From a virus (lineage: Duplodnaviria > Heunggongvirae > Uroviricota > Caudoviricetes): a stretch of DNA of 6,339 bases. The position numbers and the translations under genes are program-made. The stretch lies in the IMG/VR virus record IMGVR_UViG_2698536552_000012; one strand, given 5' to 3'. The notes beneath the pieces were generated by a model. The model was not told the origin of the DNA. It searched no databases and worked only from the letters and a program-made list of their open reading frames with translations. Every line of letters begins with the position of its first letter. The stretch's first letter is position 1. This document shows positions 1,478 to 2,399 of the stretch, one piece after another.

Positions 1478-2391
1478 TTATACCTGCGATACGTTATACC
1501 ATGTTCCGTTAATTAACTTTTGTATTGGTCTGAATACTGCCGGATCATCACCATCGACTTCACCGATAATACCAAGCCCCGTGATTACATGGCCTGATTT
1601 TTCATACATCACGCCTTTCTTCATGGTCTAAACAACTCGTGTGCCAAGTCTGACATCTCTCACATAGCGGGAATCAAAGTTACCGTAATCCGAGGGATTA
1701 ACACGTCCCGTAATATTTATGGTTTTATTACTTTGAATGCTTCCGGAGACAAAGCGCATAACATGGACGTTATTAGCATAAACATCCAGATTACCATCGC
1801 CTTTTTGTTTAAAGCCCGTGTCATTATCACCCAATACAATCGAATTACCGCCAAGAGCACTGGATGTTCCGATACCCAGTGCACCATTCAGTTGACCACC
1901 AGATNNNNNNNNNNNNNNNNNNNNNNNNNNNNNNNNNNNNNNNNNNNNNNNNNNNNNNNNNNNNNNNNNNNNNNNNNNNNNNNNNNNNNNNNNNNNNNNN
2001 NNNNNNNNNNNNNNNNNNNNNNNNNNNNNNNNNNNNNNNNNNNNNNNNNNNNNNNNNNNNNNNNNNNNNNNNNNNNNNNNNNNNNNNNNNNNNNNNNNNN
2101 NNNNNNNNNNNNNNNNNNNNNNNNNNNNNNNNNNNNNNNNNNNNNNNNNNNNNNNGTTTTCCCTAAGGCAAACGCACCAACATGACTTGCTTTTAATGTG
2201 ATATCGGAGGAACCATCAAAAGCCACATTGCTTATTTTCCTGGCAGTTTTTAATTTTGCAGCTGTAGAAGCATTGCCGGATAGTTCACCAGAAAGGCCAC
2301 CGCTGAATGTTTGTCGATTAGTCCAGGTATTCGCTGTACTGAGTAACGGTATTTTCTCCCCGCTTGTGCCGAGTTCTCGTAAACCGAGGTT
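1478..2391 (-). pseudogene. Side tail fibre variable C-terminal region (Sv-prime-like), disrupted by an in-frame TAG and interrupted by an N-run
   Basis: Minus-strand translation from the crossover site: NLGLRELGTSGEKIPLLSTANTWTNRQTFSGGLSGELSGNASTAAKLKTARKISNVAFDGSSDITLKASHVGAFALGK...[N-run]...[146 protein letters not shown]. The amber codon (plus coordinates 1628-1630) is followed in frame by a conserved fibre C-terminus. The segments either side of the N-run are in different frames if the 251-nt run length is exact. Confidence 0.6.
1905..2155. other. N-run (251 nt), undetermined or masked sequence inside the tail-fibre variable region
   Basis: Literal n characters in the sequence. Confidence 1.
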
Positions 2392-2399
2392 TTAGATAA
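2374..2399. other. Site-specific recombination crossover site of the Gin/Hin/Cin/Pin invertase family (gix/hix-like)
   Basis: ttctcgtaaaccgaggttttagataa: 26 bp made of two imperfect inverted 12-bp half-sites around a central GA. It differs at about 3 positions from the Mu gix sequence as I recall it (TTCCTGTAAACCGAGGTTTTGGATAA). It sits exactly between the 5-prime end of the minus-strand fibre variable region and the invertase gene, the position of gixR in Mu. Confidence 0.6.

Follow-up and report, generated by a model that had tools for sequence, protein, structure and literature searches.

How does a crossover site of the gix type come to stand without a partner, and can such a site still serve DNA inversion? 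Inversion by recombinases of the Din family needs a pair of 26-bp sites, together with an enhancer that lies within the invertase gene (PMC3798978 and references therein). The window analysed here, which is the whole stretch of 6,339 nucleotides of viral (Caudoviricetes) DNA, holds one such site, and a sequence-only reading left two alternatives for the other: either the segment is intact, with its left site beyond the window, or its left part has been deleted or rearranged. The site is very probably the right-hand (gixR-equivalent) relic of a cassette of the Mu G type, the partner having been deleted at a copy of IS600 and the switch being dead. The identity of the site, the IS600 junction, the loss of the partner, the gene lesions and the crossover seen in relatives are each established by sequence comparison. 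The features on which the argument draws are the following.

1–95, + strand: right end of IS600 (IS3 family), the last 95 bases, ending ...CTACCTCA; the deletion junction
96–384, + strand: Sv remnant (variable fibre C-terminus), the last 95 codons and stop, assigned by homology to intact fibre genes
386–913, + strand: Sv-paired tail fibre assembly gene (Mu U-like); Pfam Caudo_TAP, E = 7.9e-37
942–1475, − strand: S'v-paired tail fibre assembly gene (Mu U'-like); Pfam Caudo_TAP, E = 4.8e-34
1478–2391, − strand: S'v (alternative variable fibre C-terminus); Pfam gp37_C, with the translation from a matching chromosome (L005, GCA_038367175.1) compared with the E. coli NCTC86 fibre
2374–2399, + strand: gixR-type 26-bp crossover site TTCTCGTAAACCGAGGTTTTAGATAA, with inner half-site 2374–2385, central GA 2386–2387 and outer half-site 2388–2399
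2454–2742, + strand: invertase pseudogene; GTG start, codons 1–60 intact, TGA in place of Trp61 at 2634–2636

The site has the dyad and the 2-bp core expected of a Din-family recombination site: it reads TTCTCGTAAACC GA GGTTTTAGATAA, and its two 12-nt half-sites are alike at 9 of 12 positions. It is near-canonical, as had been claimed, since gixL and gixR of phage Mu are each identical to it at 23 of 26 positions, and it occurs once in the window, also when the degenerate consensus of the sequence-only reading is used with up to 3 mismatches (chance expectation from shuffled sequences, 0.00 for the exact site and 0.04 for the consensus). Its placement as the equivalent of gixR is borne out by the distance from the centre of the site to the invertase start codon, which is 67.5 nt both in the window and in Mu. 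A partner is indeed absent from the window: when every 26-mer on both strands is scored against the site, the runner-up is an unrelated sequence with 16 of 26 matches. The weak candidate that had been pointed out at 3–28 does score 12 of 26, but this is the level of chance, since about 200 other 26-mers score at least 12; it lies inside IS600 and is therefore IS600 sequence, not a degenerate site.

The left edge of the window bears directly on the missing partner. Positions 1–95 match thousands of annotated IS600 copies among E. coli genomes, are 100% identical to bases 1170–1264 of the 1264-bp full IS600 copies in the chromosomes compared here (L005–L012), and end in the CA of the terminal inverted repeat that identifies this element. 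Homology to the fibre genes of intact prophage relatives begins at base 96, which places the junction at 95/96. The earlier observation of a short + strand fibre ORF of 104 amino acids (70–384), with stops upstream in all three frames, is correct in both parts; its GTG start lies inside IS600, and its first 9 codons are sequence of the IS600 inverted repeat. The ORF is thus a chimera of IS600 and fibre, of which about 95–96 codons are real fibre, and it should not carry a fibre gene label.

Since the window starts inside IS600, what lies beyond the element is read from five matching chromosomes and not from the window's own contig. An exact search with the assembly protein of 386–913 retrieved finished chromosomes, and in five of these (L005, L007, L008, L009, and L011) four of the five unmasked stretches of the window, among them the first 1904 bases, are matched at 100% identity; the exact IS600/fibre junction has no match in the species-representative genome collection. 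All five carry a complete 1264-bp IS600 at the junction (8447–9710 in L005). In four of the five, the DNA to the left of this copy is a phage lysis region (a nanS-like esterase, holin, and DUF1327), and in L008 the left flank differs. The junction copy lacks the 3-bp target duplication, with AAC on its left and ATT on its right, while a duplication flanks each of two other copies of IS600 in these loci (TCC/TCC and GCC/GCC); the absence of a duplication points to deletion, or to recombination between copies, rather than to simple insertion. Scans of the five loci with the site at up to 6 mismatches, over about 10 kb to the left and right (9.6 kb upstream), find no other gix-like site, and the constant part of the fibre gene is not found within about 10 kb of the junction in these chromosomes. 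A Din-family switch requires two inverted flanking sites, and the window and the five loci, over the roughly 10 kb scanned to each side, hold a single one each. An inverted copy of the site just upstream of the window, with an open fibre frame reading into position 70, had been named as the finding that would speak for an intact segment; the five matching chromosomes have none, and the alternative of a deleted or rearranged left part is therefore the right one, whereas that of an intact segment with its left site outside the window is contradicted by these chromosomes.

The extent of the loss follows from the comparison with intact homologous prophages that had been recommended, in which E. 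coli NCTC86 and L006 (GCA_003606425.1) retain what the window has lost. The homologous prophage of NCTC86 is nearly complete, and about 25 kb separate its lysis region from the left site; this stretch contains lysozyme, terminase, capsid, portal, and tail genes, J, Lom, and the constant fibre part. Against this intact prophage the window locus has lost, besides about 25 kb, 612 bp of the segment, left site included. The 612 bp (9099–9710 in L006) comprise some 200 Sv codons together with the left site's inner half. On this comparative evidence the left part of the segment was lost by a deletion that ends at IS600. We infer the order and the exact mechanism of this IS600-linked deletion: a single IS600 may have removed DNA adjacent to it, or two copies may have recombined.

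Two chromosomes, L008 from among the five and the relative L012, show more of IS600 at work in the same prophage. In L008 (821–9710), the neighbouring phage early and late-regulatory genes are inverted between two IS600 copies, so that IS600 has rearranged this prophage once more. L012 has an IS600 at 13523–14786, with a GCC target duplication, near codon 117 of the same fibre gene; both recombination sites are kept, and the constant fibre part is broken by this copy. As a candidate ancestor of the junction copy, the L012 insertion has a compatible orientation, but its flanks differ and it has a target duplication of its own; it is a second, separate inactivation of the fibre.

The segment that remains contains two opposed fibre C-termini, each with its assembly chaperone, and both fibre ends are damaged. 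The Sv remnant is shared with the C-terminal residues of an intact 918-amino acid fibre in L006, ending ...NVGSV. The first 159 nt of the two assembly genes form an inverted repeat that is 71% complementary. S'v is partly masked in the window by an N run (1905–2155) and was read through the identical, unmasked locus of L005. It has a premature TAG at 1628–1630 (− strand), where E. coli NCTC86 has Gln, with loss of the last 48 residues; the TAG is also present in L010 (GCA_013838625.2), in which S'v is the expressed end. At its 5' end the S'v frame is closed by a TAA at 2392–2394, inside the outer half-site. In the unfused state the outer half-site on the invertase side thus puts TAA in frame, and the silent copy is therefore closed; once fused, the site reads ...VIEYLGLRE... 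in translation.

The adjacent invertase gene is not functional, as a Din-family switch would require it to be. Its product would begin VLIGYVRVSTNDQ... and includes the catalytic-serine motif VRVSTNDQ, but translation stops at codon 61 (TGA versus TGG), and alignment with the invertase of a P2-like prophage and with Mu gin reveals more stops and a 9-nt deletion further on. Accordingly shortened, the Pfam Resolvase match covers profile positions 2–69 of 145 only and HTH_7 is absent, whereas the intact P2-like homologue has both Resolvase and HTH_7. The first 180 nt of the gene are identical to the 5' end of Mu gin at 175 of 180 positions, and they probably still hold the Fis-dependent enhancer. 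Dependence on Fis and the enhancer, like the chemistry of cleavage, is established knowledge of the invertase family.

That the 26-mer has served as a crossover site is recorded in the relatives. Two inverted sites lie 2.9–3.1 kb apart in each intact relative (L001–L004, L006, L010, and L012) and in Mu. L006 has the orientation of the window; its left site is TTCCTGTAAACCGAGGTATTCGATAA (− strand, 9086–9111) and its right site is that of the window. L010 and L012 are 99.94–100% identical to L006 over 8.5 kb of flank on each side, and the 2.9-kb segment between the flanks is precisely inverted, with homology breakpoints that overlap inside the two 26-mers. Their sites are TTCCTGTAAACCGAGGTTTTAGATAA, adjoining the invertase remnant, and TTCTCGTAAACCGAGGTATTCGATAA, in the fibre gene. 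Relative to L006 the inner half-sites have been exchanged reciprocally: TTCCTG...GGTATTCGATAA and TTCTCG...GGTTTTAGATAA have become TTCCTG...GGTTTTAGATAA and TTCTCG...GGTATTCGATAA. The exchange point is bounded to site positions 6–17, so that the relatives display the central crossover with swapped half-sites that recombination of this type leaves. E. coli EC958 (L004) and NCTC86 (L003) differ in segment orientation in the same way. These comparisons identify the 26-mer as a real crossover site. The same invertase lesions are found in every relative examined, in both orientations; with the damage inherited from a common ancestor, and the segment lying either way round in chromosomes that are almost identical, inversion in the relatives must have taken place after the cassette's own gene had died, catalysed in trans by another invertase. 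Such flips fit the requirement for two sites and an enhancer, since the part of the invertase gene that is conserved is the 5' part, in which the enhancer would lie (PMC3798978).

In its intact form the cassette would have been a Gin-type switch of host range and would have worked as follows. A serine invertase of the Gin/Pin/Cin/Hin family would bind the two inverted 26-bp sites, about 2.9 kb apart; a Fis-bound enhancer within the 5' end of the invertase gene would assist it in cutting both sites at the central GA, and the half-complexes would rotate. With each flip, Sv and S'v, both accompanied by an assembly chaperone of their own, would change places as the in-frame continuation of the constant fibre part, the site itself being translated (...IEYLGL...). 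Three separate losses account for the death of the switch in the window: the deletion at the IS600 junction, which has taken the left site, the constant part, the 612 bp, and the approximately 25 kb of late genes; the stop at codon 61 of the adjacent invertase; and the premature stop in S'v. With no partner in cis, the lone site therefore cannot invert anything, and the segment is frozen in the orientation in which Sv faced the constant part at the time of the IS600-linked deletion. As both the second site and a functional invertase are absent, the locus is a relic of the family rather than a functional member.

Other readings of the site were weighed against this one. It is highly improbable that the segment is intact, with IS600 a simple insertion in Sv and the left site and constant part just beyond the element. 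The window does start inside IS600, so that its own upstream sequence is unseen, and L012 demonstrates that a simple IS600 insertion with a GCC duplication has occurred in the same fibre gene; the junction copy, however, is flanked by AAC and ATT in all five matching chromosomes, lysis genes adjoin it in four of them (the left flank of L008 being different), and the 9.6 kb upstream contain no gix-like site at up to 6 mismatches. Nor does it seem at all probable that the site is a chance resemblance or merely a conserved coding motif of the fibre: this reading is almost certainly wrong. The site does overlap the 5' end of S'v and encodes the conserved ...LGL... motif, yet the chance expectation is only 0.00–0.04, the distance to the invertase start is that of Mu gixR, and the inversion breakpoints of the relatives fall inside the 26-mer with reciprocal exchange of half-sites; the hybrid sites of L010 and L012 refute it.

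The trans-acting invertase implied by the relatives raises the question of whether the orphan site is still used, an invertase from another prophage pairing it, with the aid of the enhancer in the invertase remnant, with a remote gix-like site to give large chromosomal inversions or deletions. Relatives with the same dead invertase have flipped their segment, which implies that a trans-acting enzyme has been active in the group, and the first 180 nt of the gene, where the enhancer is located (PMC3798978), match Mu gin at 175 of 180 positions. Against continued use, there is no partner site within about 10 kb on either side, the only extra rearrangement nearby, that of L008, ends at IS600 copies and not at the site, and at each of the five IS600-junction loci the site has kept its two original half-sites without change, so that no exchange with a foreign site is recorded; such use has very little probability. 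A wider proposal, also very unlikely, is that in this group of chromosomes the cassette is even now a passive substrate, flipped in trans by the invertase of another prophage by way of its retained enhancer, and that the lone site of the window is a potential landing point for gix-like sites of other prophages. If this were true, invertase-mediated events would add to the IS-mediated rearrangements of Shigella genomes. The preferred reading thus remains that of a right-hand relic whose partner was deleted at IS600.

The host setting is a cryptic lambdoid prophage beside the trp operon in a chromosome of the Shigella/EIEC type, an assignment made because of an ipaHe fragment and the load of IS600 and IS1. 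The ipaHe piece (2969–3676) is the fifth unmasked stretch of the window and has no match in the five chromosomes; its 708 bases are the 5' part and upstream region of a type III effector gene, at 99.7% identity, and ipaHe is present in only 9 of 5426 E. coli genomes. It lies within a region (2743–3917) that comprises an N run, the ipaHe fragment, and another N run, 1175 bases in the window versus 240 bases in the five matching chromosomes, for which reason the window assembly is not fully trustworthy; probably either a small contig was wrongly placed in a gap of the scaffold, or the piece is an insertion specific to this strain. The N runs at 1905–2155, 4479–4639, and 5196–5446 are 251, 161, and 251 bases long, against 264, 240, and 251 bases in L005; they thus represent gaps of estimated length rather than masked bases, and from 1905 rightwards the coordinates of the window are offset from those of the true sequence.

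Downstream of the invertase remnant the window is a mosaic of phage remnants with more than 99% identity to E. coli ST131 and NCTC86. It includes fragments of fibre assembly genes at 2637–2742 and 4640–5033 (so annotated in EC958 and NCTC86), a gene for a class I SAM-dependent methyltransferase at 3918–4438 (− strand), and Rha/Ash genes. Positions 6230–6339 are the terminal 110 bases of an IS1 copy (15002–15769 in L005, with the InsA/InsB genes), so that IS elements border the prophage remnant of the window at both ends, IS600 on the left and this IS1 on the right.

For the locus itself these results matter little beyond annotation: it should be labelled the relic of a Mu-type invertible fibre switch truncated by IS600, whose parts are a single gix-type site without partner, the pseudogene of an invertase, and fibre ends that are both damaged. 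The relatives document, cleanly and in nature, how half-sites are exchanged reciprocally at a gix-type site, and they are evidence that such cassettes go on flipping in trans after the death of their own invertase. Cross-complementation within this recombinase family has long been known, and both observations agree with it.

The closest known system is the G segment of phage Mu. The two share the order of their genes (Sv, U, U', S'v) and, to the degree given above, the 26-bp site (23 of 26), the 67.5-nt spacing, and the 5' end of the invertase gene (175 of 180); at the DNA level the assembly genes of the window have about 82% identity with the U/U' region of Mu, P1, P7, and D108, and the segment measures 2.9 kb in intact relatives versus 3.06 kb in Mu. 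In contrast to Mu, the cassette of the window ends the fibre gene of a lambdoid prophage beside the trp operon, with no Mu genome; it has lost its left site and the constant part, its invertase is a pseudogene, and S'v is prematurely stopped.

Invertible fibre segments are also found in cryptic prophages, namely the P segment of e14 with pin, and the Shigella genes pinB, pinD, and pinF. As these are generally described, the locus resembles them in its cryptic prophage setting, in a Din-family invertase beside alternative fibre ends, and in cross-complementation, which is implied here by the trans flips between L006 and L010/L012 and between EC958 and NCTC86. It differs from them in that the invertase is non-functional in every genome examined. 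As a case of IS-driven prophage decay in Shigella, where IS600 and IS1 have expanded, the window is typical and in no way unusual: an IS600 end (1–95) and an IS1 end (6230–6339) form its two limits, the junction copy lacks a target duplication, as after IS-linked deletion or recombination between copies, and the independent IS600 insertion of L012 and the IS600-bounded inversion of L008 belong to the same process. The locus is a decayed member of the class that comprises Mu G, P1 C, and e14 P, and is nothing new in kind.
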